A DNA stretch of 64,000 nucleotides from Kiritimatiellia bacterium (GTDB lineage: Bacteria > Verrucomicrobiota > Kiritimatiellia > RFP12 > UBA1067): contig JAFXTB010000048.1 in the NCBI GenBank assembly GCA_017525225.1, forward strand, positions 8,799 through 72,798. The letters are read 5' to 3'. Position numbers and translations under genes: made by a program. Position 1 is the stretch's first letter. Every line of letters begins with the position of its first letter. Shown here in pieces: positions 3-64,000 of the stretch. The notes under the pieces are model-generated. The model worked only from the letters and a program-made list of their open reading frames with translations, searched no databases and had not been told where the DNA came from.

Positions 3-1379
3 GGATGCACGGGGCTTCTGCTTGATTTCATAAACGACATCGCGTCGTCGGTGAAAGACGACTATCCGTACGTGCGCGTCAGGACGTTCGCCTATCTGTG
101 GTCGTCCGCGCTGCCGACCGACGACACCAAGGCGGCCGACAACGTGGTGATACAGTTTTGCAACACTGAATCGAATCTCGCCGGCTCGATCCTGGACGCA
201 GACAATCCGTGGCTTCTGTCTACGCTCAAAAAGTGGTCGCAGCGGGCGAAGGAGCTGCACGCGTGGGACTACATGGTCACGTATTCGAAGGGTTCGCTTG
301 GTTTCCCGGTGCCCGGCGAATTCGGGTTCGGGGCGCTGTTCAAGGCATATCGCGACTACCATGCCACGTCGATGTTCCTCGAACACGAGAACCAGCACCG
401 TTCCGACATGTGGGAGCTGAAGTACAGGCTTGAAACGAAGCTGATGCAGAATCCGGATGCGGACGCCGATGCGATCATAGACGATTTCATGCGCCTCTAC
501 TATGGTCCCGCCGCGGCGAAGGTATATGCGTACCGCCGCGCACTCTGGAATGCGCGCATCAAGAACAAGGGATTCGTCCGCTGGATACCGCCAGGCAACG
601 ATTTCGACTACATCAAGGAGGAGAATCTTGCCGAATGCAACCGGATCATGGACGAGGCGGAGGCGAGCGTGGCGGACAACGCGACGTTCCTCGCCCGCGT
701 AAGGCGCGCGCGCATCGGGCTTGACATGCTGACGATCCAGCGCGCGCGGATCGCAGGCCGCGTCGACACGGATGCCGTGAAGTCGGCGGAGAACCGCATC
801 AAGACGGACTGGTTCAAGTGGATGTCCCGCTATCCCGATCCCAAGGGCAGCTGGAAGCGCTTCGAGATGATGTCCGCCGTAGGATTGCCTCCGCCGCCTC
901 GCTTCGCAGGACGGAAGATCGTGGATTTCCCGGCGATTTTCATCAAGGATCCAGAGGTGATCGCCGGCGGCGATTCGGTGGACGATCCCACGACTCCGGT
1001 GGGACTGGCGCGGCGGCTGAACTATGACTACAAGAAGGACGAGCATCTGCTGATGCCGTTCAGTGCAGGCATGTACGACAGGATGGCAAAGCGCGTGGTG
1101 CGCGGGGCATCCTTCGACAAGCCTGCGGGAGAGGGGTGGCATTGGTATCACATCGGCAAGGGACACGTTTCGGCCAAGACGATGTTCTGGATGACGCGTT
1201 CATGGCAGATATTCGTGCCGGGCGAGCGTTTTGTGGAGATCTGGGACAAGGACTGGGACATGTGGGTGTCCGCGAAATTCACGGGGCCTGCCTACGGTTT
1301 CCCGTCGAAGGACGGAAAGTCGTACGTGTGGATCGACAGGATGATCCTGGTGGAGCCAGAAGAAGAAAAGGTCAAGTGA
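3..1379 (+). CDS. C-terminal part of a secreted glycoside-hydrolase-like protein (DUF4838-like); the gene continues upstream of the window
   Basis: Frame 3 is open from position 3, with no stop before the 51 GTG of the track ORF. GC-rich third codon positions. An ENQH-containing region resembles DUF4838/GH20-like proteins. Convergent 8-nt overlap with the HAD gene. Confidence 0.55.
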   Translation, partial: GCTGLLLDFINDIASSVKDDYPYVRVRTFAYLWSSALPTDDTKAADNVVIQFCNTESNLAGSILDADNPWLLSTLKKWSQRAKELHAWDYMVTYSKGSLGFPVPGEFGFGALFKAYRDYHATSMFLEHENQHRSDMWELKYRLETKLMQNPDADADAIIDDFMRLYYGPAAAKVYAYRRALWNARIKNKGFVRWIPPGNDFDYIKEENLAECNRIMDEAEASVADNATFLARVRRARIGLDMLTIQRARIAGRVDTDAVKSAENRIKTDWFKWMSRYPDPKGSWKRFEMMSAVGLPPPPRFAGRKIVDFPAIFIKDPEVIAGGDSVDDPTTPVGLARRLNYDYKKDEHLLMPFSAGMYDRMAKRVVRGASFDKPAGEGWHWYHIGKGHVSAKTMFWMTRSWQIFVPGERFVEIWDKDWDMWVSAKFTGPAYGFPSKDGKSYVWIDRMILVEPEEEKVK

Positions 1380-1998
1380 GGCAGGGCGGCGCGTCGCTCT
1401 TGAATTGATATGCGCGCCAGCCGCAGCGGAGCGCGCCTTCGACGTTCGCCGGAGAATCGTCGAAGAACACCAGTTCTGGTCCTGCAAGCCCGAGCCGCTC
1501 CTCCATGAGCCTGTATATGGCGGGGTCCGGCTTGCAGACGCGGTGTTCGCCGGAGATGACCATGGCATCCGCGAGCGCGATGCTTTCACCCGCCTTCGGG
1601 ATGAACCAGCCGTCGCGGAATTCCACCGACATGTTGGTCAGTATGCCCACCTTGCGGCCCTGGGACTTGAAAGTGCGCATGAGCGCGAGCGTGTCCGCGT
1701 TGAAGCTCCTCACCCATCCCTCGCAGTCGGCGGCGAGCAGAAGGCGCAGGTCGTCGTCCGTGGCGGGGAGGGCGTTGTCGGCGAAGATGCGCCGGTACAT
1801 CTCCAGCCCGTCGATGAAGCCGCCGTCCCATAGCTGGCGGTACTTGCGGAATCCGGCGTCGAACGCGGCCCTGTCCAGTCCGAGCTCTGCCGCGACGCGA
1901 TAGGCGGCCCAGCCATCGCCTGGCGGAAGCGATATCACGCCTCCGAAGTCGAACACGACGCCTTTTGCGTCCTTTGCGATGTCGAGCCAGTTCTGCAT
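1372..1998 (-). CDS. HAD-superfamily hydrolase (subfamily IA-like)
   Basis: Only the C-terminal 208 aa of track ORF 1372..2703 look genuine: MQNWLDIAKDAKGVVFDFGGVI (HAD motif I DxDGV-like), later VFFDDSPANVEGA (motif IV). The upstream part of the ORF is Arg-rich junk. Alternative start 2007 (MCGM). Confidence 0.7.
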   Translation of the reverse strand: MQNWLDIAKDAKGVVFDFGGVISLPPGDGWAAYRVAAELGLDRAAFDAGFRKYRQLWDGGFIDGLEMYRRIFADNALPATDDDLRLLLAADCEGWVRSFNADTLALMRTFKSQGRKVGILTNMSVEFRDGWFIPKAGESIALADAMVISGEHRVCKPDPAIYRLMEERLGLAGPELVFFDDSPANVEGALRCGWRAYQFKSDAPPCLT

Positions 1999-2054
1999 GC
2001 CGCACATTCTACCACTTTCACCCGTCGCCATCCAGCGTTTTCGTCGCGTCATCA

Positions 2055-2083
2055 TTGACTTCAAGCGCGGTCTTTGGGATAAT
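2055..2083 (+). promoter_or_regulatory. sigma70-like promoter TTGACT-17-GATAAT ending 8 nt before ATG 2092 (leaderless-type)
   Basis: TTGACT 2055-2060, 17-nt spacer, GATAAT 2078-2083, ATG at 2092, no SD. Confidence 0.45.
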
Positions 2084-2091
2084 ACGGGGCG

Positions 2092-4668
2092 ATGAAAAAC
2101 AAGCACTCCATTCTCAAGGGTATTTCGTTCGGCCTTGCGGCGGCGGCGTTGTGCGCAGCGGCCGCAGATCTCGGCGCAGGCAGGCCGTTGCCGCCGGACA
2201 GGCGTCCGTACGAGTTCAGGAACGCCGGGCGCGACAAAGACGACGTGGCGCCGCTTGTCGATTTCGAGGACGGGCGGGCGTGGCGGGCAACCGCCGCCGA
2301 AGCGGAGGCCTTCTGCGAGATCACGCAGGAGGAGCAGCTTTTCGGGACGAACACCTTGAGGCTTTCGTATTGCGGGAAGGGGGTGTCGCCCCGGGTGTCG
2401 ATCATTCCGCCAAAGCCTGTCGCGCTGCCGGAGACGTTTGACACCATGTACGTATGGGTCATGGGCAACCATTTCGGAACTGGCGGCAATACGGACTTCA
2501 GCATACCCAATTCGGAACTGTTCGCTGTATTTCGCGGCGCGCAGGGCGAAGAGGTGAAGATGTCGCTTGCCAAGGTCGCCTGGCCGGACTGGCACCAGGT
2601 GAACCGACGCTTCACGGAGGCGGAGCGCGCGAAACTGGCAGGCGCGTCGTTTGCAGGGTTCGAGCTTTCCGGCGGCACGCAGACGCAAAGTCTGCAGATG
2701 CATTTCGACAACGTGGCCGTGTTCGTGGACGATCTCAAGACGCCGCTTGCCGTGAAACCGCGCGCGCGCCGCAATCTGAAGCCGCTTCCGGGCGCCGTAC
2801 AGGGCATCAACACGGGCGAGGGGCGGCTGCCTTTCCCGACAGGCGAGGACACGATAATCCCCAGAACCTCCGCGCCGGAGAAAGGCGACATGCTCGCGCA
2901 GTTCAACGGCGGCGCGGTGAAGAAGGACGAGTCTGCCAGCCTCAGGATGGACACCTGGCGGAAGGGGAAGTCGCTCGTGGTGGACTTCTACGCGGCTGCT
3001 GGAACCGTGACCGAAGTATCGGCGGGAACGGCCTGCGAGGCGAAGATCCTAAAGAGCTTCAAGGTTCCGTATCTTGCGTATGGCGACAGGGAAGGGCGGC
3101 TCAGGATCGATCTACTGGAAGGCGGCTGGTACCGCAGCGCGGTGTTCGACTGGTACCGGTCGAACGCCAGCACGCCGAGTTCTACCAACGGCGCGTTCAC
3201 GATGGTCTATCGTCCCAAAACCGATGGCACGTACAACCCGGTGAGCGAACGGCTCGTGATAACCGTGAGCCGCGACTTCGCGGAAGTCCTGCCGGAGATA
3301 CCCAATCCCGCCTCTCCGTACAAGGCTGTCACGGGGAAGAACGCATGGCGCGCCTACGGCAGCTTTGAACATGCGTACGACCGCGCATTCTGGCAGAAGG
3401 TGAAGGAGGCGGGCATCGAGCATGTGGTCGTCAACGACCATGAAACGATGTGGCGTGACAGGGGCGAGAGCTTCACGTTCCGGACGGAAGCCGCGCCTGG
3501 CCGTGGCGGCGACGCCGGGGCCGCGGAGTACTCGCGGTTCATGCGCGGTGAGCTGGGCTATGTGTACGGCCCGTACAACAACTACACGGACTTCTCGCCC
3601 ATGAACGCGCACTGGTCGCGCGATCGCGTGTCGCGCCTGGGCGACGGCAGGATGCTGTCCGCGTGGGTGCGCTGCTACGCGCCGAAACCAGTCTTCGCGC
3701 CGCAGATGTGCGAGGAGATCGTGCCGAAGGCGCAGGCGAAGTTTGCGTTCAACACGGCCTACTGCGACGTGCACACCGCGGTGACCCCATACAGCCGCAC
3801 GGACTACGATGCGCGCGTGCCGGGCGCGGCCACGTTCGCGCAGACGTTCTATGCCTGGGGCGAGCTGCTGCTCCTGCAGAAGAGGTTCTGGAACGGTCCT
3901 GTCTACTCCGAAGGCGGGCGGCAGTTCCTCTATTCCGGGCTTTCCGACGGCAACTATGCGCAGGACGGCGGCTACAACTTCCACGCGCAGCCGTGGATCG
4001 TGGATTTTGACATCCTGAAGATCCATCCGCTGGAATGCAACTTCGGCATGGGCACGCTCGCGATGTTCTCGCCCGGCAAGACGAAGGAGGAAATCCGCCG
4101 CCACAGGCCGCACACGCCTACGGAGAAGGCGCGCGACGAGCTTGTAGATCTGTTCCTCACGGCGACCGTCGCGTTCGGCCATGCGCCGTTCCTCGTGCTG
4201 GACTACTGCTTCGATCCGCCCAAGGCATTCGGTCCGGCATACCATGGGCCTACCAGGACCGTCATGGACAGAGGGCTGCCGGTGGCACTCAGGAGCTATG
4301 CGATGGTGCAGCCGATCGCCGCAATGTATACGCAGTCCGAGGCCAGGAGAATCCGCTACTTCGACGCTTCCGGCAGGATGCTCACGTCGTCGGAGGCGAT
4401 AGCCTCGGGCGATGTCGCGCGCAACCAGGTGTTCGTGGAGTATGCGGATGGCACCTGCGTGGTCGCCAACGGCAATGTGCGCGAGAGGCTGAAGGCCATG
4501 GTCGACGGGTGCGGTTGCGACGTGCCGCCGCGCGCGTTCAAGGCATGGACGAGAGACGGCAGCGTGCGGGCGGAGATTTCAGAGGATGCCGACGGCCGGC
4601 GCACGTATTTCAGCGACTGTCCGGAATTCACCTACAAGGACGGCAGGCTTGTGAAGAAGGCTCCATAG
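2092..4668 (+). CDS. large secreted hypothetical protein (858 aa), possibly carbohydrate-active
   Basis: N-terminal signal peptide MKNKHSILKGISFGLAAAALCAAAA. Long ORF with GC3-rich codon usage. No family motif recognised by eye. Confidence 0.7.
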   Translation: MKNKHSILKGISFGLAAAALCAAAADLGAGRPLPPDRRPYEFRNAGRDKDDVAPLVDFEDGRAWRATAAEAEAFCEITQEEQLFGTNTLRLSYCGKGVSPRVSIIPPKPVALPETFDTMYVWVMGNHFGTGGNTDFSIPNSELFAVFRGAQGEEVKMSLAKVAWPDWHQVNRRFTEAERAKLAGASFAGFELSGGTQTQSLQMHFDNVAVFVDDLKTPLAVKPRARRNLKPLPGAVQGINTGEGRLPFPTGEDTIIPRTSAPEKGDMLAQFNGGAVKKDESASLRMDTWRKGKSLVVDFYAAAGTVTEVSAGTACEAKILKSFKVPYLAYGDREGRLRIDLLEGGWYRSAVFDWYRSNASTPSSTNGAFTMVYRPKTDGTYNPVSERLVITVSRDFAEVLPEIPNPASPYKAVTGKNAWRAYGSFEHAYDRAFWQKVKEAGIEHVVVNDHETMWRDRGESFTFRTEAAPGRGGDAGAAEYSRFMRGELGYVYGPYNNYTDFSPMNAHWSRDRVSRLGDGRMLSAWVRCYAPKPVFAPQMCEEIVPKAQAKFAFNTAYCDVHTAVTPYSRTDYDARVPGAATFAQTFYAWGELLLLQKRFWNGPVYSEGGRQFLYSGLSDGNYAQDGGYNFHAQPWIVDFDILKIHPLECNFGMGTLAMFSPGKTKEEIRRHRPHTPTEKARDELVDLFLTATVAFGHAPFLVLDYCFDPPKAFGPAYHGPTRTVMDRGLPVALRSYAMVQPIAAMYTQSEARRIRYFDASGRMLTSSEAIASGDVARNQVFVEYADGTCVVANGNVRERLKAMVDGCGCDVPPRAFKAWTRDGSVRAEISEDADGRRTYFSDCPEFTYKDGRLVKKAP

Positions 4669-4680: not shown

Positions 4681-4709
4681 TTGCGCTAACGGTGCAAGTA
4701 TGGTAAAAT
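4681..4709 (+). promoter_or_regulatory. sigma70-like promoter TTGCGC-17-TGgTAAAAT (extended -10)
   Basis: TTGCGC 4681-4686, 17-nt spacer, TG-extended TAAAAT 4704-4709 in an AT-rich island upstream of gene 4776. Confidence 0.45.
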
Positions 4710-4715
4710 CTCCGC

Positions 4716-4734
4716 CATGGCGCACTGCGCCATG
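4716..4734 (+). promoter_or_regulatory. perfect 9-bp inverted repeat CATGGCGCA-c-TGCGCCATG at the predicted transcription start (candidate operator or 5' stem-loop)
   Basis: Arms 4716-4724 and 4726-4734 are exact reverse complements. Lies 7 nt downstream of the -10 hexamer, i.e. +1..+19. Confidence 0.5.
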
Positions 4735-7402: not shown

Positions 7403-7436
7403 CCAACTAACCAACTACCAACAAACCAACTACCAA
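7403..7436 (+). repeat. CCAACTA direct repeats (x4, imperfect) in the leader of the aldolase gene
   Basis: ccaactaaccaactaccaacaaaccaactaccaa read directly. C/A-rich, no SD nearby except a weak AGGAA. Confidence 0.6.
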
Positions 7437-7458
7437 TGTCCCAACAGGAATCAATAAA

Positions 7459-8316: not shown

Positions 8317-8381
8317 CCGAGAAGGCCATGTGCCTAGACTTCCTGGAAGGAAGACCACAGCCCGTGGCGACACACAACCCC

Positions 8382-8410
8382 TTGCCTTTGGGCGAGGGGT
8401 TTGCTATAAT
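8382..8410 (+). promoter_or_regulatory. sigma70-like promoter TTGCCT-17-TATAAT, 6 nt before ATG 8417 (leaderless-type)
   Basis: TTGCCT 8382-8387, 17-nt spacer, TATAAT 8405-8410, ATG 8417, no SD. Confidence 0.5.
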
Positions 8411-8416: not shown

Positions 8417-10264
8417 ATGGCAAAAAACACGAATTCCCGCAAGGTCCGCATCACCGACACCACCCTGCGCGACGCCCACCAGTCCCTCTGGGCCACGCGC
8501 ATGCGTACGGACGACATCCTCGCCATAGCCGAAAAGATAGATTCGGCCGGCTACTATTCACTTGAATGCTGGGGCGGCGCCACGTTCGACGTGTGCATGC
8601 GCTTCCTGCGCGAAAACCCGTGGGAGAGGCTCCGCCGCATCAAGGCGGTATGCCGCCGCACCCCGCTGCAGATGCTGCTCAGGGGCCAGAACATCCTCGG
8701 CTACAAGCATTATCCGGACGACGTGGTGGACCGTTTCGTGGCGCTTGCGTGCGAGAACGGCATGGACATATTCCGCGTCTTCGACGCGCTCAACGACCCG
8801 CGCAACCTCGAGACGGCCATCCGCGCCGTCAAGAAGTACGGCGGCCACGCGCAGGGCACGATCAGCTACACCACCTCGCCCGTACATACCGTGGAGTCGT
8901 ACGTGGCGCTCGCGAGGGAGCAGGCGGCGATGGGCATCGATTCGCTCGCGATCAAGGACATGGCGGGCATACTCACGCCCGGCGCCGCGCGCGAGCTCGT
9001 AGGCGCGCTCGTGAAGGCCCTGCCCGACATGCCGATCCAGGTGCACTCCCACATGACGAGCGGCATGGCGGCCGCGATGTACATGGCCGCCGTGGAGGCC
9101 GGCGCGGGATGCGTGGACACCGCGATCTCCACGCTGTCATCCTTCTCCTCACAGCCGCCTTGCGAATCGGTGATGACGATTCTCGAGTCGGAGGGCTTCG
9201 ATACCGGCCTAGACCGCGCCGTGCTGGGGGAAATCAACGCCTACTTCATGGATCTGAAGAAGAAGCGCCAGCCGGCGTCGTCCGCAAGGGTCGAGGCCGT
9301 GGATGCCGGCGTGCTGGTGCATGCGATCCCCGGCGGCATGATCTCCAACCTGCGCAGCCAGCTGGCACAGCAGGGTGCGCTGGACCGTCTGGACGACGTG
9401 CTGGCGGAACTGCCCAGGACGCGCGCCGACATGGGCTATCCGCCCCTGGTCACGCCAACCTCGCAGATCGTGGGCGTACAGAGCGTACTGAACGTACTTT
9501 CCGGCCGGCGCTACTCAATGGTCACCGACGAGACCAGGCACTACGCCGCCGGATACTACGGCCGTACGCCAGCGCCCATCGACAGGAAGCTGAGGAAGAA
9601 GCTGATGGGCGACCTGAAGCCGATAGACTGCCGTCCCGCGGACCTTCTTAAGCCAGGCCTCTCCGCGGCGGCGGACGAGATCCCCGCAAAGCTCATCCAG
9701 GCCGAGGAGGACATTCTCTCCTACTGCCTGTTCCCGGAGGTCGCGCTGGACTTCTTCAAATGGCGCGCCAAGCCCGAGGGTGAGCGCGATCCGATTCCTG
9801 CAGATCTGGAGATGCAGAAGGCCGAGGCGGAAAAGGCCGCCGCGCCCGCCCTGGACGAGCAGACGGCGAAGTTCGCCAGCATCGGAAGGGCTTTCGCTTC
9901 TCTGATGGCCGCATGCGGCGGCACGGGTGATCTTAACGGCCTTAACGGCACTAACGGCGTTAATGGCCTTAACGGCGCTGATGTTCAGGAGGCCGGTGAG
10001 TCCAAGAAGGAACCTGAGGATCAGATTCCCGCCGGCGAGCCGGTTCTGGCACCTCTCAACGGCACGTTCTACCGCAGCGCAGGGCCGGGCAAGCCGGAAC
10101 TGGCCGCCGACGGCGCCACAGTGAAGGCTGGCGAGCCGTGCTGCATCGTCGAGGCGATGAAGCTCTTCAACCCGATCAAGGCGCCTGTCGCGGGGAAGAT
10201 CACCTTCCTCGTGAAGCATGGCACGGTCGTGGTCAAGGGCCAGACACTGGCCGTGGTGGCATGA
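8417..10264 (+). CDS. biotin-dependent carboxyltransferase: oxaloacetate decarboxylase alpha subunit / pyruvate carboxylase subunit B-like (5S carboxyltransferase + biotinyl domain)
   Basis: MAKNTNSRKVRITDTTLRDAHQSL (HMGL-like TIM-barrel start) and a C-terminal biotinyl domain with the EAMKLFNPI (AMK) biotinylation motif. Real start ATG 8417 rather than track start 8189. Confidence 0.85.
   Translation: MAKNTNSRKVRITDTTLRDAHQSLWATRMRTDDILAIAEKIDSAGYYSLECWGGATFDVCMRFLRENPWERLRRIKAVCRRTPLQMLLRGQNILGYKHYPDDVVDRFVALACENGMDIFRVFDALNDPRNLETAIRAVKKYGGHAQGTISYTTSPVHTVESYVALAREQAAMGIDSLAIKDMAGILTPGAARELVGALVKALPDMPIQVHSHMTSGMAAAMYMAAVEAGAGCVDTAISTLSSFSSQPPCESVMTILESEGFDTGLDRAVLGEINAYFMDLKKKRQPASSARVEAVDAGVLVHAIPGGMISNLRSQLAQQGALDRLDDVLAELPRTRADMGYPPLVTPTSQIVGVQSVLNVLSGRRYSMVTDETRHYAAGYYGRTPAPIDRKLRKKLMGDLKPIDCRPADLLKPGLSAAADEIPAKLIQAEEDILSYCLFPEVALDFFKWRAKPEGERDPIPADLEMQKAEAEKAAAPALDEQTAKFASIGRAFASLMAACGGTGDLNGLNGTNGVNGLNGADVQEAGESKKEPEDQIPAGEPVLAPLNGTFYRSAGPGKPELAADGATVKAGEPCCIVEAMKLFNPIKAPVAGKITFLVKHGTVVVKGQTLAVVA
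9932..9976 (+). repeat. 5 x 9-bp in-frame tandem repeat (CTTAACGGC-like) encoding an LNG/TNG/VNG linker before the biotinyl domain
   Basis: cttaacggc cttaacggc actaacggc gttaatggc cttaacggc read directly, encoding GDLNGLNGTNGVNGLNGAD. Confidence 0.8.
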
Positions 10265-20001: not shown

Positions 20002-21189
20002 ATGTTCAAAAGACATCTCAAGACAGGGCAGAGATCGGCCGTCGCTGTAGCGGCGGTGTCCGCGGCCATGCTTCTGCCTGCCGGTGAACTGCCGGTCGTC
20101 GACCTGAGCGGCGATGCCAGCCGGCATGCCGTCATCGCCGCCGGAACGGAAAAGGACTACCAGGGACATCCGACGACGGTGCTGACGCCGGACGGACGCA
20201 TCATCGCCGTCTGGTGCACGCCTCACGGCGGATGGTGTGGCCCGGCGGCGGAGAGCGCAGATGGCGGGAAGACATGGACGCGCATAGACGGCCGTTTCCC
20301 GGAGGGTTTCCGTCGCCATGTGAACTGCCCGAGCATATACCGCCTGGAAGGCCCCGACGGCAAGGCGCGGATCTGGACATGGAGCCAGGTGAAGATGCCG
20401 CCAGACGCGAAGGACCATGACGACCACCGCGAGCGGGGCGAGCCGATGCCGTCCGTCATGAGCGAGGACGAAGGGCGTACGTGGAGGGAGATGCCGCCCT
20501 TGGGCGCGAAGTTCCGCTGCGTGATGGCCTTCGCCTCCATCGTGCGCCTGAAGGACGGTTCGTACCTCGGCATGTTCCACGCCGGTCCCGGTGGCGCCGA
20601 TAGGCCGCCTCTCAAGGTCTGGCAGTCCGTCACAAGGGACGGAGGATTCACATGGAGCGATCCCGTCCTCGTGGCGTCCGTAGAGGGCAAGAACCTATGC
20701 GAGCCTTATGTGTTCCGTTCGCCGGATGGCGGCGAGCTTTGCTGCCTCATGCGCGAAAACACGCACAAGGGGTGTTCGATGATGATGTTCTCGCAGGACG
20801 ACGGCCGCACATGGTCGGTGCCCGAGGATTCTCCCTGGGGGCTCACGGGCGATCGGCATCAAGGTGTTCAGCTGCCCGACGGGCGGTTCGTGGTGGCGTT
20901 CCGCGACATGGCGCCGAAGTCGCCGACGCGCGGGCATTTCGTTGCGTGGGTTGGACCCTACGCCGCGATCAGATCACGCGAGAAGAAGGGTACCTATCGC
21001 ATCAAGCTGCTTCACAACTATGCCGGCGTGGACTGCGGCTATCCCGGTATACACCTCCTGCCGGACGGCACCATCATCGCGACGACATACGTCAAGTACT
21101 GGAACGACGCCAGGCAGCAGTCGGTAGTCTCCACGCGCTTCCGGGTGGAAGAGACTGACAGGCGCATCATGTTGCAAACCGGTCCATGA
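20002..21189 (+). CDS. secreted BNR/Asp-box repeat sialidase-like glycoside hydrolase
   Basis: Four Asp-boxes ([32 protein letters not shown]), signal peptide [37 protein letters not shown]. No clear RIP motif, so the sialidase assignment is moderate. Confidence 0.65.
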
Positions 21190-21200
21190 TGGTGTATAAT
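21172..21200 (+). promoter_or_regulatory. sigma70-like promoter TTGCAA-17-TATAAT upstream of the mutarotase-symporter gene
   Basis: TTGCAA 21172-21177, 17-nt spacer, TATAAT 21195-21200. Confidence 0.5.
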
Positions 21201-21234
21201 GCCGTCCGTGTCAGTTGTCCAAGAGAGATTCAAG

Positions 21235-23817
21235 ATGAAGATGGCGTTGTCTGCGAGGTACGGCGTACTGGCGTTCGCCGGTGCATGTCTTTCCACCTGC
21301 CTCTGGGCGCATGTGGAGCTGAACTGGGGCGAGGAGTTCCTTCTGCCGCCATTGGACGGCAGACCCAACGTGGGCGTGGCAAGGCCCTTCGCGGGCGTTT
21401 CCAACGGACGCGTCCTTCTTGCCGGCGGCGCGAACTTCCCGGTGAAGCCGCTCATCGAGGGCGGCCCCAAGGTCTACCATGACGAGATCTGGAGCTTCGA
21501 TCCGTCGGCTGCGAAGCCGGCATGGGAGCTTTCGGGACGTCTGCCCATGGCGCGCGGGGAAGGTGCGTATGCGACCGTGCCACAGGGCGTGGTGTGCGTC
21601 TCCGGCGCGATCGGTGCCGACGGCAAGGCGCTCACGAACGGATGCTTCCTCATGCGCTGGGAAGGCGGCCAGGTGCAAGTTTCCGACCTGCCGCCATTCC
21701 CCGAGCCGGCGAGATACGCGGCCGCCGCCTCGCGAGGCTCCAAGGTGTATGCGGTAGGTGTCCGCAAGGTGGCGTCCATCGACCTGGGCGACGCGAATCC
21801 GCGGTGGACTTCGCTACCCGACCTCCCGGAAGAGGTGTTCCAGCCTGCATGCGCCGTGCAGAACCTCTCGCACCAGCGCACGGGGCTTTTCGTCTTCGCG
21901 GAGCACGGGAAGGACAAGCTTTCCGGCGGATGGTTCCTGGATCTCGCCCCGGATGCCGCCGCAGGCTGGCAGCCGGTCCCCGACGTCCCTGCGGACGGAC
22001 CTCTCGGGGACCGCAAGTTCGTAGGTTCGCTCGCGCTCGCCTCTGGCGACCAGCACATACTCTTCTTCGGCGGCACCAGTCGAGGCCCGGCGCGTGAAAG
22101 CGAAGGCAAGGGACGCGACTGGTACCTCAATCATCCGCCGGAATGGTTCCGCTTCCCGAAGGCCGTGCTTGTCTACCACACCGTCACCGAGCGCTGGTTC
22201 ACGCTGGCGGAGACTCCGTTCCCGGGCCGCGCCGGGGCCGCGCTCGTGGCGCTGCCCGACGGCCGCATCCTGCTGCATGGCGGAGAGATCGGCCCTGGCA
22301 CGCGCACGCCTCGCGGCGCGATCGGCGCCTTCGCGCGCACGAAGGGGTGGCATCCGGTCAACTATGCGGTGGTGGTGCTGTATTTCGCGGCCATGGCCGG
22401 GATGGGGTTCTGGTTCATGCGGCGCAACAGGTCTTCCGACACGTACTTCAAGGGTGGCGGCCACATCCCGTGGTGGTTCGTCTCGATGTCCATATACGCC
22501 ACGATGCTCTCGTCGATCACCTTCATCTCGATCCCGGCGCTGGTGTACCTAACGGACTGCCGCTATTTCGCGATCACGTTCGGCATACTCATACTCGCGC
22601 CGATAGTCACGCGCTACTATCTGCCGTTCTTCCGCCGGCTCAACCTCACGAGCGCGTACGAGTACCTGGAGGTGCGCTTCAACCTCGCATGCCGTCTCTT
22701 TGCGTCGGCGGCGTTCATCCTCTTCATGGTCGCGCGCACGGCGATAGTCACGTACCTTCCGGCGATCGCGCTTTCCGCGGTCGTGGATGTGGACGTCAAC
22801 CTGTCGATCGTGCTGGTGACCGCGGTGACGATCCTCTACTGCACGCTTGGCGGCGTGGAGGCCGTCATCTGGAGCGATTTCGTGCAGTCGCTCATCCTGA
22901 TACTCGGAACGCTGATGATATACGCATACCTCGTGTGCGGCACGGAAGGGGGGCTGGGCGGCTTCATCGCGATGGGCGCGGCGGCGGAGAAGTTCAGGGT
23001 GTTCGATTTCACTCTCGACTGGTCGAAGCCCGTGTTCTGGGTGGTGTTCGTGGGCGGAGTGGTGGCGAATCTCGCGTCCTACACCTCCGACCAGTGTGTG
23101 GTGCAGCGTTACATGACCACGAAGGACGAGCAGGGCGCGGCGCGCTCGATCCTCTTCAACGGCGTACTGTCCTTCGTCAACAGCATGGTGTTCTTCACGC
23201 TGGGCGTGGCGCTCTGGACGTTCTTCCGCTCCAACCCCAGCCTCCTGGAGGTGACGATGCCGAAGAACGATTCAGTGTTCCCCCTCTTCATCGGCGGCGT
23301 GCTGCCTGTCGGCGTGTCGGGGCTGATACTCGCCGCCGTGGCGGCGGCCACGATGAGCACGCTCTCCGCGAACCTCAACAGCGCGGCGTCGGCCTTCACC
23401 ACCGACTTCTTCGCGCGCCTGGGCAGGAACGTGTCCGATGCCGCCAAGCTCCGCTGCGGACGCATCGCCACCATCGTCACGGGTCTTCTGGGGGGCTTCT
23501 TCGCGCTGGTGCTGGCGAACATGGAGATACACTCGATCTACGACCAGTTCCAGAGGTTCCTCGGAATCCTGACGGGCGGACTCGGATGCCTCTTCTTCAT
23601 GGGCATATTCATGAAGCGCGTGACACCCGCCGGGGCGACGGCCGGGCTTGTGGCTAACTACGCGGTCTGCTTCGCGCTCGACCAGCTTTCGTTCCCGCAC
23701 AAGCCGCATCTGCTGCTCTTCGGCGCGCTGGGCATGGTCGCGTGCCTGGTGGTGGCGCCGCTGGTGAGCGCGCTGACGCGCGGGCCGCAGACCGATCACC
23801 CGCGTACCGGCCCGTGA
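21235..23817 (+). CDS. fusion protein: periplasmic kelch-type sialic-acid mutarotase (NanM/cyclically-permuted mutarotase-like) + sodium:solute symporter (SSS, SiaT-like)
   Basis: Signal peptide MKMALSARYGVLAFAGACLSTCLWA. N-terminal ~370 aa is kelch/galactose-oxidase-like with repeated GG..GG blocks. C-terminal ~500 aa has 13 or more TM helices with SSS-family character. Start ATG 21235, since the track start 21199 overlaps the -10. Confidence 0.7.
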   Translation: MKMALSARYGVLAFAGACLSTCLWAHVELNWGEEFLLPPLDGRPNVGVARPFAGVSNGRVLLAGGANFPVKPLIEGGPKVYHDEIWSFDPSAAKPAWELSGRLPMARGEGAYATVPQGVVCVSGAIGADGKALTNGCFLMRWEGGQVQVSDLPPFPEPARYAAAASRGSKVYAVGVRKVASIDLGDANPRWTSLPDLPEEVFQPACAVQNLSHQRTGLFVFAEHGKDKLSGGWFLDLAPDAAAGWQPVPDVPADGPLGDRKFVGSLALASGDQHILFFGGTSRGPARESEGKGRDWYLNHPPEWFRFPKAVLVYHTVTERWFTLAETPFPGRAGAALVALPDGRILLHGGEIGPGTRTPRGAIGAFARTKGWHPVNYAVVVLYFAAMAGMGFWFMRRNRSSDTYFKGGGHIPWWFVSMSIYATMLSSITFISIPALVYLTDCRYFAITFGILILAPIVTRYYLPFFRRLNLTSAYEYLEVRFNLACRLFASAAFILFMVARTAIVTYLPAIALSAVVDVDVNLSIVLVTAVTILYCTLGGVEAVIWSDFVQSLILILGTLMIYAYLVCGTEGGLGGFIAMGAAAEKFRVFDFTLDWSKPVFWVVFVGGVVANLASYTSDQCVVQRYMTTKDEQGAARSILFNGVLSFVNSMVFFTLGVALWTFFRSNPSLLEVTMPKNDSVFPLFIGGVLPVGVSGLILAAVAAATMSTLSANLNSAASAFTTDFFARLGRNVSDAAKLRCGRIATIVTGLLGGFFALVLANMEIHSIYDQFQRFLGILTGGLGCLFFMGIFMKRVTPAGATAGLVANYAVCFALDQLSFPHKPHLLLFGALGMVACLVVAPLVSALTRGPQTDHPRTGP

Positions 23818-25518: not shown

Positions 25519-25569
25519 GTCTGACTCCCGTTCCTGGAAAGTGGGTTGCTTATAATTATCTCATTTCAT

Positions 25570-25598
25570 TTGCTTTCGCGCAAGTGGTAAGGTATACT
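25570..25598 (+). promoter_or_regulatory. sigma70-like promoter TTGCTT-17-TATACT in the divergent region between pssA and the TolB-like gene
   Basis: Hexamers read directly. CAGGAG SD then ATG 25629. Confidence 0.4.
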
Positions 25599-31172: not shown

Positions 31173-31202
31173 TTGCGGATTCATGCGGGAATTTGGTATA
31201 AT
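31173..31202 (+). promoter_or_regulatory. sigma70-like promoter TTGCGG-18-TGgTATAAT, 7 nt before ATG 31210 (leaderless-type)
   Basis: TTGCGG 31173-31178, TATAAT 31197-31202 with upstream TG, ATG 31210. Confidence 0.5.
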
Positions 31203-31209
31203 GGCCCAC

Positions 31210-32106
31210 ATGAAAACCAAGAAACTTGAAGGGTTGGTCGCAGCGGCGCATACGCCGTTCGCGAAGGACGGTTCGGTGGACGTGGATCAGGTGCCCCGCC
31301 AGGCGGCGGCGCTCCTGAAGCAGAAGGTGATCGGCGCATACGTGTGCGGCACCACGGGCGAGGGCATATCCTGCTCTGTCGAGGAACGCAAGGCTGTGAT
31401 GGCGGCCTGGGCGCGCGCGGCGAAGGGGAAGCTCTTCCTCATCGCACACACGGGCGCGCTCGGCCTCACCGACGCGCAGGAGCTGGGGGCGTACGCCGAG
31501 GAGCTCGGATATGACGCCGTATCGGTGGTGCCGGCAAACTACTTCAAGCCTGGCTCCGTAGCGACGCTCGTCGACTACCTCAACGCCGCGCTTGAAGGCT
31601 GCCGCAATACGCCGTTCTACTACTACCACACCGGCATGAGCGGAATCCATCTCGACATGCAGCAGTTCCTCGAGAAGGCCGACGGCCGCATCCCCAACCT
31701 TGCCGGCATCAAGTTCAACTATCCCGACCTCTACATGTACCAGCGCTGCATGCGCTGCTGCGGCGGCAAATACGACATCACGTGGGGGATCGACGAATGG
31801 TTCGCTGGCGCAGTGGCCTGCGGCGCGAAGAGCGCCATCGGCTCCACATACAACTACGCCGCCCCGATATACACCCGCATAGCCGAGGCCGTGCGAAAGG
31901 GCGACCTGAAGGCGGCCGAGAAGGGCATGAAGAAGGTGTGCGACATCGTGGACATCCTCGTGCAGTACGGCGGCGTGGCCGCCGGCAAGACGATGATGGC
32001 CGTGCACGGGATGGACCTGGGCGACGTTCGCCTGCCGTGCGTGCCGCTTACGGCGGCGCAGAAGGCCGACTGCATCGCGCGACTCCGCAAGATAGGCTAC
32101 CGCTGA
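31210..32106 (+). CDS. N-acetylneuraminate lyase / dihydrodipicolinate synthase-family aldolase
   Basis: GTTGEG motif, Schiff-base lysine context AGIKFNYPD, 299 aa. Context: downstream of SGNH esterase, with sialidase and mutarotase-symporter nearby. Confidence 0.7.
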   Translation: MKTKKLEGLVAAAHTPFAKDGSVDVDQVPRQAAALLKQKVIGAYVCGTTGEGISCSVEERKAVMAAWARAAKGKLFLIAHTGALGLTDAQELGAYAEELGYDAVSVVPANYFKPGSVATLVDYLNAALEGCRNTPFYYYHTGMSGIHLDMQQFLEKADGRIPNLAGIKFNYPDLYMYQRCMRCCGGKYDITWGIDEWFAGAVACGAKSAIGSTYNYAAPIYTRIAEAVRKGDLKAAEKGMKKVCDIVDILVQYGGVAAGKTMMAVHGMDLGDVRLPCVPLTAAQKADCIARLRKIGYR

Positions 32107-37650: not shown

Positions 37651-37699
37651 GAAGGTTGTGAAGGTTGTGAGGGTTGTGAGGGTTGAGAAGGTTGTGAAA
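37651..37699 (+). repeat. 5 x 9-bp tandem repeat GARGGTTGW immediately upstream of the RBS of giant gene 1
   Basis: gaaggttgt gaaggttgt gagggttgt gagggttga gaaggttgt read directly. ATG at 37714. Confidence 0.8.
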
Positions 37700-37713
37700 A
37701 GAAAGGAAAAAAG

Positions 37714-40700
37714 ATGAAGACGATACGGACTCTTGAGGCGTCAAGGGGAGTGAAGGGTTTTGCAATGCTGGCCCTTCTTGCATCAATTTCGCTTCCCGGC
37801 GCGTTGCATGGCGCCAACTACACCTACACCTGGACCTGGACCGGCAATGGCGACGGCATTACCTGGTCGGACGGCGGCAACTGGACATGTTCCCCGTCCG
37901 GAGCGGCGTACGAATACCCGTCCACGGTGGAGGACTTTGTCAAGTTCAACTCGAAAGTCGGCGGCGGACTCGTGGTGACGTCTCGTCTGGATGAAGCCGT
38001 GACGATATATGGAATCCTGCAGAGCGGTTCCGACCCGTTGCTGCTTACCACGACCAACGATTCGCAATTGACGTTCAGCATACATTCCGGGGGCGATGTC
38101 GAGTCGATGTACGACGGTGTGTGCGTCGATCAAGGCTCGACGCTCTACCTGGACGTCCCCATCGTGATGGATAGACGTTTCGACAAATGGGGTGGTGGTA
38201 CGGTCTACTGGCAGAGGAGCTTCGTGAACGGAGTCAATACCTCGTCGGCGAGGTACAACTTTATAGGAGGTGCCGGGACGAACTTCCTCGTCGGAAACTT
38301 CTCTTTGACGGGGGGAAGCAAGATGGATTCCAACTTCGGGTTTGGCGCCGACGTCGGGAAATGGACGTATTTGTACGTGCAGGACAACGCATCGCTGGAA
38401 TGCTACAGACTGAAGCTGGGCACGAGCCGTTCGGCACCCAACATATTGTTCAGGCAGGATGGCGACGGTACCAGGGTCGTGGCAAGCGACTTTCTTGGAA
38501 TAGGCAATTTCACGGATGGAAATCACAATGACTGGAGTACGTCCGTATACCACATGGTGCGGGGGACTCTTTCGGCATCGTACATGAACCTCGCGCCAGG
38601 GCGACCGGGACGCTACGTACAGGATGGCGGTACGGCCACGGTGTCATACGTCTCGTGTGGCGCGGAAGTAAGATCGTATGGATCGTTCGAGTTGAATGGC
38701 GGGCGGTTCGTAGACACCTCGGGCGACTCTTCCGCAGACATGTTCTGCTCCATTTCGTCCCCCAGATTCGACGTGTCTCTTACAGGCGGCACGCTGGCAT
38801 TCACGGGCGAGCCTGTGATCAGGCGGCGCCTCCGCCTTTCAGGTTCGCCTTCGATAGAGATGGCATCGGGCAAGGCGGTGCAATTCCGCGCGGCGCCCGA
38901 CATCGCCGCCGGAACATCGCTGACGAAGACTGGTCCGGGAACGATGAGGATCATGACGGATTTCCCGGCGGTCGGGTCGTTAACGGTGGAGGAAGGGGCT
39001 GTCTATCTGGGCTATAGCAACGCCTCGCAGCGGTACGGGGTCTATGGCGCGTACGACGACTATACGCCGTGGCATGTCAAGATCAAGAATGGCGGCTTGC
39101 TCGGCTGGCATGAAGCGACGACCTCGATCACCTCGTACTTCTACCAGCCGATGGATCTCGATATCGATGACGGTGGATGCTTCAGCTTCTACTCCCACCG
39201 TACCGCGGCGTTCGCGCATTCTCTCACTGCGAACGGCGTCAAGGTGGCTCGCGGCGTGTATCGCGCCACCAAGACCGGTCACATCAGATGTTCTGGAACC
39301 GAGAATATCGCCCACATGATAGTGCCCTACACCTGGACTGGTGGTGGCGACGGGGTGTCGTGGACCGATACGGCGAACTGGGAGGACGGAGCCGTGCCTC
39401 CGAACGTCAGTGCATCAGACTTTAATGTGCCATACGCCGACCTCTCCCGCGCCACCAACATCACATTCACCTCCAACATCACCATCGGCGGCATCCTCTA
39501 TTCGCCAAACGGCGCCAACAAGAGGCTCGTCATCTCCAGCGACACGGCGACCTTGAAGCTGGCCCCTCCAAACTACCAGATTTCCTGCCAGATACGCCCT
39601 GATGCTACGCTTGAATTCGACTGCAAGGTCGCGCGTTACAAGACGTGCGGACTTGTCGGCAACGGCACGTACGTCTTCCGCCGGAACATCCCTGGGGCGT
39701 TCCTGAAAAAGACCGGATTCGACAATGACTTCATGCTGTCCCTCGTGGTCGACGGCACGTTGATCCTCCGTGGCGTGAAGGAGTGTATTCCTGAAAGCTC
39801 GAACCACACCACGGCGCTCGGATTCCACTCAAACCAGTCGGGAAGCGAATCGACGATCGTCTTCGAGGGTGAAGATACCGACTTCGCCCTGAACTACCTG
39901 TTTTTCTCCAGGGGCGGGTACACGGGCATGAACCGCTACATCCAGCGCGACGGGGCGAAGCTCACGGTGACGAACTTCTGCGTGAACACGCATCGTACCG
40001 AGCAGGAACCGAAGCGGTACTACCTGCAGGGCGGCACGCTTACATGCGTGGAAGGGCTGTTCCTCAACACGAACCTGAGCTCCACGGTCTCTTCCTGCAA
40101 CCGCGTGCCGGGCGGCAGCTTCGAAATGACGGGCGGCACGCTCACGACCCCGCAGATCGGGAGCGAGTGCCTGCAGAACTGGTGCTATCTCAACGGCGGC
40201 GACGCATACGTGGGAGCTGGCGGCATATCGCGGACGTGCTGCACGAACGGCTATGGCGGGATGGACAAGCAGTACCAGAGCCAGAGTGCCTACAATCTGA
40301 AGACCGGCGAGATCCTCTACAACACCACGCCGTCGCTACAGCTGGGCGGGGTGAACCTGCATGCCTCGGCCGACTTCTCTGTTACGCTGGACACCGCCTT
40401 CAGCGGCGTGGGCGGAGCGACTACGATCGATACCGCCGGGCACGACATAACGTTCGAGGGCTGCGTACTTGCCGGGACCGGCGGCTGGCGCAAGATCGGA
40501 GAAGGAACCCTTTACCTCAACGGCACGAACAGCTTCACGGGCGCGATGTCCGTGGAGGCGGGCACGGTCGTCGTAGGGGCGGAGGCCGTGAACGAATCCG
40601 CTCCGGCGAGGCTTGAACTTGCCTCCGCCTCTTCCCTCTCGCTTCCCGCGGGAGCGGCGTGGACGGTCGAGACGCTGATCGTGGGCGGGGTCCGCAAGGC

Positions 40701-42060: not shown

Positions 42061-42108
42061 GGTTGAAAAGTAGAAAGGTTGAAAGGTTGAAAAGTTGAAA
42101 GGTTGAAA
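42061..42108 (+). repeat. 6 tandem copies of GGTTGAAA(A) immediately after the giant-1 stop
   Basis: ggttgaaaag tagaaa ggttgaaa ggttgaaaa gttgaaa ggttgaaa read directly. Confidence 0.8.
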
Positions 42109-42174
42109 TTCCGCCGTCCGCGCTGGCGCTGGAATGTAAATGAGGATAAGTTTAATGAGGCAGTCGCAAAACCC

Positions 42175-42247: not shown

Positions 42248-42248
42248 G

Positions 42249-42340: not shown

Positions 42341-42387
42341 GTTACAGGCAAGGTTGAAAAGTCAAACGAGAACAAGATGGAGCAGAG

Positions 42388-45071: not shown

Positions 45072-45100
45072 AGAGGGCCTCGTTGTCATAGGCCTTGGAA

Positions 45101-49558: not shown

Positions 49559-49586
49559 CATGATGGAATCAGCGCCGTGGTTTTGG

Positions 49587-49592
49587 TATAAT
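49587..49592 (+). promoter_or_regulatory. extended -10 element TGgTATAAT after giant 2
   Basis: ttttggtataat read directly. Weak -35. Confidence 0.3.
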
Positions 49593-49653
49593 AAGTCCAT
49601 GCCGTCGGCAGAAGTCCAGTTGAAAGGTTAGACGATAACAAGAAGGAGCAGAG

Positions 49654-61650: not shown

Positions 61651-64000
61651 ATGAAAAAAGTCCTATGTCTCGGTTGCGCCTCCCTGGCGGCGATGGTATT
61701 CGGCCGTTCGGTGTCGCTTGACTGGCGGAAGGGCGGCGATCAGCCCGTCGAGGTGATCGACTTCGGCCCGCAGACCGTGGGTGGCTACGCCGTCTTCGAA
61801 GTGGCAGATTTCACATCCGCTGCCGATGGTACTCTTCCCGTGCTGCGGCTCTCCTACGCGACCCACCCGGACGGCCTCTCGCCCGCCGGCGACTTCTCTC
61901 GCGAGACCCACGCGACCTACCTGCACGTGGACAACCCGGTCCTGCCCGCGAACATCAACCGCCACGAACTCTACACGATTCCGCGCAAGGGCCAGTTCGT
62001 CGCGCCGCTTCTCCAGGGACAGGAACGCTACATACGCGTGGCGCTCGACACGCCCGGCACCTCGCTCCGCCTCTCCTCGTTTGATATCGTGAACGCGGGC
62101 GTCTATTCGGAGGTGCCCGCGGTCGGGTCGTTCGCGTGCAACGACCCGCGCGCGAAGGCCGTGTGGGACATGGGCGCGCGCACGTGCCAGCTTGCCTCGA
62201 TCCCGAACGCCGACGCCTGGCGCGTGGTGGCGGACGTGCTGATCCCGCGCAAGCTTGAGAGGGGATCCGCCGATGGCTGGTGCCGCTTTGTGCCGAATTT
62301 CGAGGGCACGTTGGAGGTCACGTACGAGTTCCGCCTCAACCCGCATTTCCCGAATGGCGCCTTCAAGGTGTTCACCGGGTGGCTCAACGCCGAGCCCGAC
62401 GTACTTGAGACGATCAAGCAGGAGGGACCGGATGGCGTAATCAAGACGGCGAACATTCCGCTCAAGCCTGGCCGGTTCGGATTCCGTCTCGCGAAGGAGG
62501 AATGGCCGATGATCCATTCCGTCGTGGTGAAGGACAAGGCCGGCAAGGAACGGTGGCGCGACGATTTCACGGACGCGCCGTCCGGCAAGGCCGTCAACTG
62601 GGTCTACACGACTGCGATCCCGTACCTTGCCGACGGCGGCAAGCGCGACCGTCTCGTGTGGAGCGGCGACCTCTGGTGGGCGCAGCGCATGGTGTACTAC
62701 GCGTTCGGTCCGAAGGATCCCTACCTCGCGGGCGCGCTCCGTCTGTTGGCCTTCAACCAGACGCCCGAGGGATACTGCCACGCCGCGCCCTATGCCGAGA
62801 ACACCGTGAAGCCGATGTCGGGTGACTACGGATCCTTCGCCTCGGACGAGTTCTCCGCCTGGCTCGTGCCCTGCGCGTGGGAACACTACCTCTTCACCGG
62901 CGACGAGACGCTCGCGCGCGAGCTCTGGCCGGCGGTCGACCGCGACCTGTGCTACCTGGCCTCGCGCATGGGCGACGACGGACTCTTCGCGCCACGGTTC
63001 GAGACGTCGAAACACGCCATGCGGATGGACTGCGGCGACGTGCGCAAGCGCGTGTACCAGAACGTCATCTTCTGGATGTGCTGGCGCGACGGCGCGAAGC
63101 TCGCCCGCGCGCTGGGACACGCCGCGCGCGCGGACGAACTGCAAGGGATGGCCGATCGCCACGCGCAGGCGATCCGCGCCCGCTTCAAGGACCCAACCAC
63201 GGGGAAGTGGAACACGGTCCTCGGCGCGAAGGGCGCGGACGGCGCGAGCTGTGCCATGATGCTCGCGAGCGGCTTCGCGACACGCGATGAGGCGATTTCG
63301 CTCGCGCGTACCTGCTGGCATGTTGGCGTAGGTAAGTTCCAGTCGCTCGTGGCACGCGGCAAGTTCCGCTACGGCTTCACGCAGGGTGGCCTGCGCGCGA
63401 TCTCGGACGGCAACTGGCACTCGTTCATCGACCCCAGCTGGAAGGGTGCGCGGTGCTGTACGGAGTGCATGTACCTCACGACGAAGGGTTGGTGGGATGA
63501 ATCGCATCCCGATACGACAATTTCCGGCCTCTATACGGGCCACCTGCTCGGCGTGGAACCGGTCGAGCCCGGCTTTCGCGTCTTTACGATCGCTCCGCAG
63601 ATGGCGCCGTCCATCACGCGCGCAGAGGGTGTGGTGCCTACGCCCCATGGCAACATCGAGGTGGCATGGCGGTGCACGGGCGGCACGCTGACCATCGACT
63701 TCACGGTTCCCGAAGGGACTGTGGCAGATGTCGCCAGTGGGCTGGGAACGGGTCCACGCCGGTATGGCCCCGGACGCTATTCCTTCACGCGTGAGGTGCC
63801 ACCCGAGGAACTGGTCGATCCCACGCTTGACGCAGGCGTGGCCAAGGGACCGCAGACGCGCGAATTCGGCTTCGTCACGTCCCAGCCTTTTACCGACCCG
63901 GCGGCGCGTTACATCCAGACATTTGACCTGGACGAGGTCGTCTCGGTCGATTCCGTGACGCTCTTCCCTTCGGGAGAGGGTTTCCCAGACACGGTGGTGA
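61651..64000 (+). CDS. secreted GH78-like alpha-L-rhamnosidase-family (six-hairpin) glycosidase, 3'-partial; runs off the window end
   Basis: Own translation from ATG 61651 shows no stop to 64000 (783 codons), hence absent from the track. Signal peptide MKKVLCLGCASLAAMVFG. DGGKRDRLVWSGDLWWAQ matches the GH78 D-x3-R-[ED]-R-x2-W-x-G-D block. GC3-rich codons. The overlapping minus ORF 61663..63648 is an Arg-rich shadow. Confidence 0.65.
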   Translation, partial: MKKVLCLGCASLAAMVFGRSVSLDWRKGGDQPVEVIDFGPQTVGGYAVFEVADFTSAADGTLPVLRLSYATHPDGLSPAGDFSRETHATYLHVDNPVLPANINRHELYTIPRKGQFVAPLLQGQERYIRVALDTPGTSLRLSSFDIVNAGVYSEVPAVGSFACNDPRAKAVWDMGARTCQLASIPNADAWRVVADVLIPRKLERGSADGWCRFVPNFEGTLEVTYEFRLNPHFPNGAFKVFTGWLNAEPDVLETIKQEGPDGVIKTANIPLKPGRFGFRLAKEEWPMIHSVVVKDKAGKERWRDDFTDAPSGKAVNWVYTTAIPYLADGGKRDRLVWSGDLWWAQRMVYYAFGPKDPYLAGALRLLAFNQTPEGYCHAAPYAENTVKPMSGDYGSFASDEFSAWLVPCAWEHYLFTGDETLARELWPAVDRDLCYLASRMGDDGLFAPRFETSKHAMRMDCGDVRKRVYQNVIFWMCWRDGAKLARALGHAARADELQGMADRHAQAIRARFKDPTTGKWNTVLGAKGADGASCAMMLASGFATRDEAISLARTCWHVGVGKFQSLVARGKFRYGFTQGGLRAISDGNWHSFIDPSWKGARCCTECMYLTTKGWWDESHPDTTISGLYTGHLLGVEPVEPGFRVFTIAPQMAPSITRAEGVVPTPHGNIEVAWRCTGGTLTIDFTVPEGTVADVASGLGTGPRRYGPGRYSFTREVPPEELVDPTLDAGVAKGPQTREFGFVTSQPFTDPAARYIQTFDLDEVVSVDSVTLFPSGEGFPDTVV

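Follow-up and report, generated by a model that had tools for sequence, protein, structure and literature searches.

Probable leaderless genes behind extended -10 promoters, side by side with Shine-Dalgarno-led genes, in a Kiritimatiellia genome

Direct binding of the ribosome and the initiator tRNA to a 5'-terminal AUG is established for leaderless mRNAs of other bacteria, and extended -10 promoters, like the Gram-positive '-16 region' TRTG motif, are well known from E. coli and B. subtilis as promoters in which TGn lies directly upstream of the -10 element and the -35 element is weak or dispensable. Here we analyse a 64-kb stretch of DNA (hereafter the window, with coordinates counted from its position 1) from a metagenome-assembled genome (MAG) of Kiritimatiellia, a lineage of the Planctomycetes-Verrucomicrobia-Chlamydiae (PVC) group, in which five genes have an extended -10 element just ahead of the ATG and no Shine-Dalgarno (SD) sequence. 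In the GeneMarkS-2 study (PMC6028130), 1028 of 4769 bacteria fall into the comparable group C; Actinobacteria and Deinococcus-Thermus make up most of them, and 25-50% of the operons are affected. With the group C organisms treated there (Mycobacterium, Streptomyces, Deinococcus-Thermus) the window shares a Pribnow box placed 6-8 nt from the start of operon-first genes and a mixture with SD-led genes, whereas the taxon is a different one. The promoter differs as well, being information-rich here (TGnTAtAAT, T at -5, A-rich upstream) in contrast to the degenerate TAnnnT of high-GC Actinobacteria and Deinococcus (PMC3160421). The latter study, by Zheng et al. (2011), described TA-like signals and orthologues that switch between leaderless and SD-led modes as species diverge, a picture that agrees with the switching seen directly here for oadA, nanA and a GH78 gene among Kiritimatiellia MAGs. 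PVC phyla are not listed in the main text of either paper, and our literature search found no leaderless transcription or mapping of transcription start sites (TSSs) for Kiritimatiellota or the PVC group. SD pairing has been reported in about 63% of Kiritimatiellae mRNAs (PMC10783764), a proportion compatible with a mixed leaderless/SD system. This organization of bacterial genes is already known and involves no new mechanism; for this phylum our search turned up no earlier account of it.

We consider it highly probable that the five genes are leaderless and are transcribed from extended -10, sigma-70-type promoters with a start on or near the ATG, alongside SD-led genes in the same window. 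The term leaderless is used here for a prediction drawn from promoter geometry, from which we also deduce where transcription starts and how the ribosome is recruited. In the mechanism that we propose, an RNA polymerase carrying the housekeeping (sigma-70-type) sigma factor would read the extended -10 element, with a weak TTGnnn 17-18 bp upstream, and would begin transcription at the first base of the ATG or no more than 1-2 nt away from it. The mRNA would thus have neither a 5' untranslated region nor an SD, and a ribosome loaded with fMet-tRNA would bind the 5'-terminal AUG directly, while the downstream genes of the operons and the other operon-first genes of the window would use ordinary AGGAG-type SDs. 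The start codon is ATG in all five candidates.

Four of these promoter-ATG junctions had been proposed in a sequence-only reading of the window as TTGnnn, 17 nt and TATAAT followed by an ATG 6-8 nt later. The positions and the distance to the ATG were right, but the spacer at 31173 measures 18 nt and not 17, and the hexamer is an exact TATAAT at sites 2 and 3, the other two being GATAAT (site 1) and TATCAT (site 4); the TGn had been omitted. Site 1, on the plus strand, consists of TTGACT (2055-2060), a 17-nt spacer and GATAAT (2078-2083), with 10 of 12 matches to consensus; its extended -10 element, TGgGATAAT (2075-2083), is followed after 8 nt by ATG 2092. The gene that starts there (2092..4668, +; here g2092) is a leaderless candidate encoding an 858-aa secreted protein without a Pfam match, of the same length as GenBank MBR4652593.1 (858 aa). 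Site 2 (+), the oadA/pycB promoter, has TTGCCT at 8382-8387, a 17-nt spacer to TATAAT at 8405-8410, the extended element TGcTATAAT (8402-8410) and, 6 nt further, ATG 8417. It precedes the second candidate (8417..10264, +), an oadA-like gene with a Pfam match, whose 615-aa product resembles pyruvate carboxylase subunit B and the alpha subunit of oxaloacetate decarboxylase (GenBank MBR4652597.1, 615 aa).

Site 3 (+) has a -35-like TTGCGG (31173-31178) separated by 18 nt from TATAAT (31197-31202), with the extended element TGgTATAAT at 31194-31202 and ATG 31210 after 7 nt; as the -35 has just 3 of 6 matches, this site was missed by a generic consensus scan. The candidate leaderless gene behind it is nanA-like (31210..32106, +) and encodes a 298-aa protein of the DHDPS family that resembles N-acetylneuraminate lyase, position 2 of the Pfam profile aligning at residue 6. 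Site 4 (+) combines TTGCCA (61616-61621), a 17-nt spacer and TATCAT (61639-61644), the extended element TGgTATCAT occupying 61636-61644, with ATG 61651 following after 6 nt; the candidate (61651..64000, +) is a GH78-like gene with a Pfam match for the alpha-L-rhamnosidase family and continues beyond the end of the window. We add to these a fifth site, which reads TGgTAGAAT on the minus strand (2014..2006) and lies 7 nt ahead of ATG 1998, with C at -1 and a weak -35 element, TGGATG (2034..2029), at a 17-nt spacing. The corresponding candidate (1372..1998, -) encodes a HAD-IA hydrolase of 208 aa (GenBank MBR4652592.1, 208 aa; Pfam PF00702 over residues 12-193). The genes at 1998 (-) and 2092 (+) are divergent, their ATGs lie 93 bp apart, and the back-to-back promoters occupy the whole gap, leaving no space for leaders or further promoters.

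All five sites carry TGn and belong to the extended -10 class. The base preceding the ATG is C in four of the five candidate genes and in six of the seven places where an extended -10 element and an ATG are combined in the window, which fits the rule of a pyrimidine at -1 and a purine at +1 of the start site. The genes organized in this way number at least five (1998(-), 2092, 8417, 31210 and 61651), roughly one third of the ~14 recognizable promoters; counted within this one window, promoters that abut the start are 5-6 of ~14. The ambiguous sixth case (21172..21210, +) is TTGCAA, 17 nt, TATAAT (21195-21200), 7 nt and GTG 21208, the start chosen by GenBank; an alternative start at ATG 21235, which would give a leader of ~27 nt, is equally plausible.

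As the sequence-only reading had stated, SD sequences are absent from these junctions: no GGAG, GAGG or AGGA core stands between the -10 element and the ATG at its four sites, nor at site 5. Strong SDs elsewhere in the window, also part of that reading, are found as AAGGAG before 28800 and 49654, AAAGGAG before 12320 and GGAGAGGAG before 33611. The absence of an SD was judged by inspection of motifs and not from duplex energies with the anti-SD, which were noisy and did not separate the two classes (background mean -5.1 kcal/mol); the candidate sites were at background except 61651 (-8.2 kcal/mol), where the pairing falls within the promoter. Over their first 36 nt, the five candidate mRNAs have less structure than 29 other genes of the window (-2.5 vs -5.9 kcal/mol) and a higher A content (46% vs 30%). 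Low structure and high A content at these 5' ends are consistent with leaderless initiation and are suggestive (P ~0.02, n = 5).

The positional coupling was compared with 500 dinucleotide-preserving shuffles of the window. The composite motif (TTGnnn, 16-18 nt, a hexamer with at least 5 of 6 matches to TATAAT, 6-8 nt, ATG) occurs five times, against 0.11 +/- 0.34 in the shuffles (maximum 2). Extended -10 sites, defined as TGn plus a hexamer with at least 5 of 6 matches to TATAAT, number 12 in the window and 5.1 +/- 2.2 in the shuffles, whereas non-extended hexamers are depleted (48 observed vs 79). An ATG lies 6-8 nt downstream of 7 of the 12 extended -10 sites, where 0.20 +/- 0.44 were expected (binomial P = 5e-7), and none of the 500 shuffles reached seven. 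A generic sigma-70 scan gave no overall excess of promoter-like sites over the shuffle expectation (3 vs 3.6, 3 vs 3.5 and 3 vs 4.9 per 20 kb). The non-random property is the position relative to the ATG, and not the number of sites.

Judged from the sequences, the ATGs adjoining the -10 elements are the true translation starts: in-frame stops, signal peptides and the edges of Pfam domains point to them, as do the lengths of homologues and the alignment of orthologues. In-frame stops lie 9 nt upstream of ATG 2092 and 51 nt upstream of ATG 61651, making both the first possible starts, and each opens a typical signal peptide; at site 1 the stop (TAA, 2080-2082) sits within the extended -10 element itself, so that a start codon farther upstream is impossible. 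Orthologues of oadA begin 8-10 residues ahead of the invariant motif RITDTTLRDAH. For the nanA family, 118 of the 120 homologues listed (66-83% identical) have at least 295 aa, mostly 296 or 298, the length of the 31210 reading being 298 aa, as is that of a 100%-identical NCBI protein; where nanA orthologues have an SD, it precedes the homologous start codon (MKTRKLEGL, MKIRKLEGL, VKTKKLEGL). The GenBank annotation of the MAG uses 1998, 2092, 8417 and 31210 exactly, and for 61651 the N-termini of homologues are the only outside support.

The promoters had also been taken to argue against longer open reading frames (ORFs) at 8189 and 31183, and this is borne out, as neither has a counterpart in the protein collection or among homologues. 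For oadA, a start at TTG 8189 was rejected (the added N-terminal stretch would overlap the aldolase gene ahead of it, and protein records show nothing of this kind), and GTG 8330 was also considered and rejected. For nanA, the start at 31183 was discarded, its 307-aa form being absent from the record, and 31201 was likewise considered and rejected. Protein records disagree in several places: the HAD hydrolase has 208 aa in GenBank and 211-227 aa in other records of the protein collection; a NanM-symporter fusion has 869 aa in GenBank (GTG 21208) and 872 aa (ATG 21199) or 860 aa (ATG 21235) elsewhere; the nanA-like protein has 298 aa, against a 301-aa call in a near-identical relative; and a large protein has 1415 aa in GenBank (start 45311) and 1465 aa in another record. 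In all of these (1998, 21199-21235, 31201-31210 and 45161-45311), the GenBank choices are those compatible with the promoter positions.

Alignment of 27 sites from the window and its relatives gave T[T/G]TGnTAtAAT. Directly upstream the sequence is rich in A, and the spacer to a weak TTGa/c hexamer measures 17 bp. From the -10 hexamer to the ATG there are 6, 7 or 8 nt in 21 of the 27, a pyrimidine precedes the ATG in 21, and T stands two positions upstream of TG in 22; the search for sites in relatives required TGn, whereas the first four sites of the window were chosen without it. The TGn, the weak -35 and the frequent T two positions before TG are as in the extended -10/TRTG class, from which the element differs by its coupling to an ATG at +1, its recognition by sigma being predicted. 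TGnTAnAAT is also found 25-80 nt upstream of the SD-led genes 18056, 60433 and 25560(-), and in the related loci L015, L024 and L095, which identifies it as a promoter of this clade and not a translation signal. The divergent gap 25551-25598 has overlapping -10-like elements on both strands (TTATAAT/GATAAT and TATACT); the flanking genes, for a CDP-alcohol phosphatidyltransferase (ATG 25518, -) and a PD40 protein (ATG 25629), both have an SD and leaders of ~25-35 nt and are of the leadered class.

Recurrence in relatives is clearest for oadA, whose relatives are Kiritimatiellia gut MAGs from horse, ruminants and other hosts and assign the window to that class. TGnTAnAAT lies 6-10 nt before the ATG in ~16 of 36 Kiritimatiellia oadA orthologues (57-86% identical), the remaining upstream DNA being unalignable. 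Other orthologues (L001, L015, L024/25, L028/29/32) have a like promoter farther upstream together with an AGGAG-type SD, and the non-Kiritimatiellia loci of the oadA scan showed no peak at 6-8 nt. In L106, from a related genome with a different gene upstream, homology to the window starts ~12 nt upstream of the oadA -35 element, a boundary that fits the promoter and oadA as one unit, kept together when the upstream gene changed. Most intergenic regions of the near-identical contig L106/L107 have no substitutions and are hence uninformative, the oadA breakpoint being the exception. At the GH78 gene, L103 shares with the window a 55-nt stretch, promoter included, at 100% identity, while its protein is 92% identical and its upstream gene is different. 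Further cases outside oadA in related loci are a plsY-like gene (two species), an AraC regulator and a second divergent pair of the same anatomy in another species (L101, 1414(-)/1507(+)), with a gap of 92 bp.

The arrangement at g2092 is the same in the 98%-identical L081. Homologues in L082, L083, L085, L090 and L093 (72-87% identical) have an additional in-frame domain upstream (...RYADCVKYLEGSVILPSEYGENA...ENLGAG), which in the window (2092-2170) and in L081 is replaced by the signal peptide and the divergent HAD gene; the promoter/ATG junction of g2092 hence arose by a rearrangement. No independent test of site 1 comes from the close relatives of this gene, since L081 is near-identical and the others carry the in-frame fusion to the upstream domain. 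More distant relatives of g2092 are SD-led, except L092, which has TGcTATAAT and an ATG after 9 nt.

Several observations count against leaderless expression of these genes. The -35 elements are weak (3-5 of 6 matches), and site 1 has an 8-nt spacing and G before the ATG; its transcript may begin 1-2 nt upstream of the ATG and be functionally leaderless all the same. Two of the extended -10 elements that abut an ATG (4717 and 49599) open short ORFs only; not every ATG at +1 marks a gene. In more distant species, nanA and the GH78 gene have mostly SD-led orthologues: these loci confirm the start codons and show no conservation of the leaderless state, which implies that the leaderless arrangement is lineage-specific for these genes, with switching gene by gene. 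Outside oadA, moreover, the enrichment in related loci is modest (4 of 47 sites vs 1.2 expected, P = 0.03). Lastly, 8417, 31210 and 61651 lie 100, 63 and 65 nt after co-directional genes, and a terminator scan found no convincing intrinsic terminator in the three gaps, so that read-through transcripts with internal ATGs may coexist for these genes. It could then be that the promoters are real and the genes are nonetheless expressed mainly from read-through transcripts, the SD-less ATGs being used internally by SD-independent initiation or re-initiation and the leaderless isoform being minor. We hold this to be improbable: read-through is inapplicable to the divergently transcribed 1998(-) and 2092(+), the promoter module stays with oadA when the upstream gene changes (L106), the GH78 promoter is perfectly conserved beside a different upstream gene (L103), and an inverted repeat at 8376-8401 could form a hairpin that insulates oadA against read-through.

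The TATAAT-like element might alternatively act in RNA, as an A/U-rich, SD-independent ribosome-binding or enhancer element within a short leader made from a promoter farther upstream. It does sit where an SD would be, and SD-poor initiation has been reported in some Verrucomicrobia (PMC10783764); an RNA element, however, would need neither TGn nor TTGnnn at 17-18 bp, genes with an SD of their own have this motif 25-80 nt upstream as well, the 93-bp divergent gap has no space for another promoter, and Kiritimatiellia otherwise use an SD in the ~63% of mRNAs given above, making this explanation very unlikely. The probability that AT-rich hexamers and ATGs were juxtaposed by chance in intergenic DNA is negligible. 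Such a reading could appeal to the total of sigma-70-like matches in the generic scan, which is not above the shuffle expectation, but it is refuted statistically by the positional counts, reached in 0 of 500 shuffles, and TGn is present at all four sites first proposed, with the pattern recurring in orthologous loci. The proposal of probable leaderless mRNAs, made from the letters of the window, is therefore upheld by the enrichment over shuffles, the verified start codons and the recurrence in relatives, with 5' ends predicted from promoter geometry.

A broader proposition, for and against which we regard the odds as even, is that Kiritimatiellia are an undescribed leaderless-rich lineage of the PVC group comparable to Actinobacteria and Deinococcus, with a well-defined T[T/G]TGnTAtAAT promoter that places +1 on the ATG, rapid switching between leaderless and SD-led modes among species, and some mini-ORFs (49599-49631) acting as upstream regulatory ORFs. 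At the level of the window, a PVC-group lineage joins the bacteria that appear to mix leaderless and SD-led initiation, and its orthologues offer clean natural examples of switching between the two modes. The annotation insight is correct and useful, the leaderless state being deduced from sequence: it fixes start codons where protein records disagree in length, and it defines a promoter consensus for an uncultured gut clade rich in glycan-degrading enzymes, which helps in predicting operons, expressing the genes in other hosts and interpreting metatranscriptomes.

Repeats accompany some of the promoters. The inverted repeat at 8376..8401 (AACCCCTTGCC-tttg-GGCGAGGGGTT; 11-nt arms, 91% complementary, 4-nt loop) overlaps the oadA -35 element and spacer and lies inside the promoter block that is conserved in L106 despite the different upstream gene; it is a possible operator or insulating hairpin. 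A second inverted repeat (TTCATGCGGG-N15-CCCACATGAA; 31180-31189/31205-31214) is centred on the -10 element of the nanA-like gene and includes the start ATG; it is a candidate repressor operator of the sialic-acid gene cluster, and its symmetry accounts for the upstream in-frame ATG at 31183.

The two sites that open short ORFs are both on the plus strand. At 4681..4734, TTGCGC, 17 nt and TGgTAAAAT (4681-4709) are followed after 7 nt by ATG 4717, which opens an ORF of just 53 codons, out of frame with the real gene downstream, an SD-led GFO/IDH/MocA oxidoreductase gene starting at ATG 4776. A perfect palindrome found once in the window (CATGGCGCA-c-TGCGCCATG, 4716-4734) stands at the predicted start of this promoter's transcript and includes ATG 4717; it could be an operator or a 5' stem-loop. 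At 49584..49631, TGgTATAAT and 6 nt precede ATG 49599, which opens a 10-codon ORF (MPSAEVQLKG*) ending 22 nt before the SD-led gene 49654. This ORF (49599-49631) is a candidate leaderless upstream mini-ORF, in a region that the related contig L107 has in identical form. Mycobacteria are known to have short leaderless ORFs ahead of genes, and the case here is similar to them in having an extended -10 element and then an ATG at the predicted +1 that opens a 10-codon ORF ahead of an SD-led gene; unlike them, it is a single case, compared only with a near-identical relative.

At 45186-45274 (+) the sequence matches Rfam RF00029 (group II intron domains V/VI) with 47 bits, above the gathering score of 40. 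Domain V is canonical, with its AGC triad and GAAA loop, domain VI has the bulged A, and the match lies only ~60 nt after a promoter composed of TTGACA, 17 nt and TAATAT/TATAAT (45101-45127). No intron body or reverse transcriptase was found upstream of it, the related contig L107 has no such match, and 144 kb of related loci, scanned against Rfam, yielded no more copies of group II intron domain V/VI. The element, which falls in the spurious N-terminal extension ('MATGKALNGKPHAGNPHVRFDEG...') of the 45161 ORF (GenBank start, 45311), is probably an orphan intron remnant.

In the neighbouring region, where the window (37714-45310) is compared with L107 (9749-10001), L107 has one large PATR-repeat protein, with a 5' region similar to window 37714 and a body similar to window 45311. 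The extra block of the window, which encodes a 1448-aa protein, a PD40 protein and one of 407 aa, points either to a segmental duplication on the side of the window or to a deletion on the side of L107, where paralogues would have recombined. Short tandem repeats occur after the stop at 42060 ('aggttgaaa', ~5 copies, 42060-42110), before ATG 37714 ('ggttgtgag', ~3 copies, 37687-37713) and before the aldolase ATG 7459 ('aaccaactacc', 2 copies, 7411-7440). Ahead of gene 42388, a gap of 327 nt contains a long, GC-rich stretch resembling a hairpin, cccggtagggcggtcgccccgcgaccgccgcgggcggcgcggggcgccgtccctacc, as well as repeated words similar to 'atttgtgaaca' (42160-42230 and 42250-42340).

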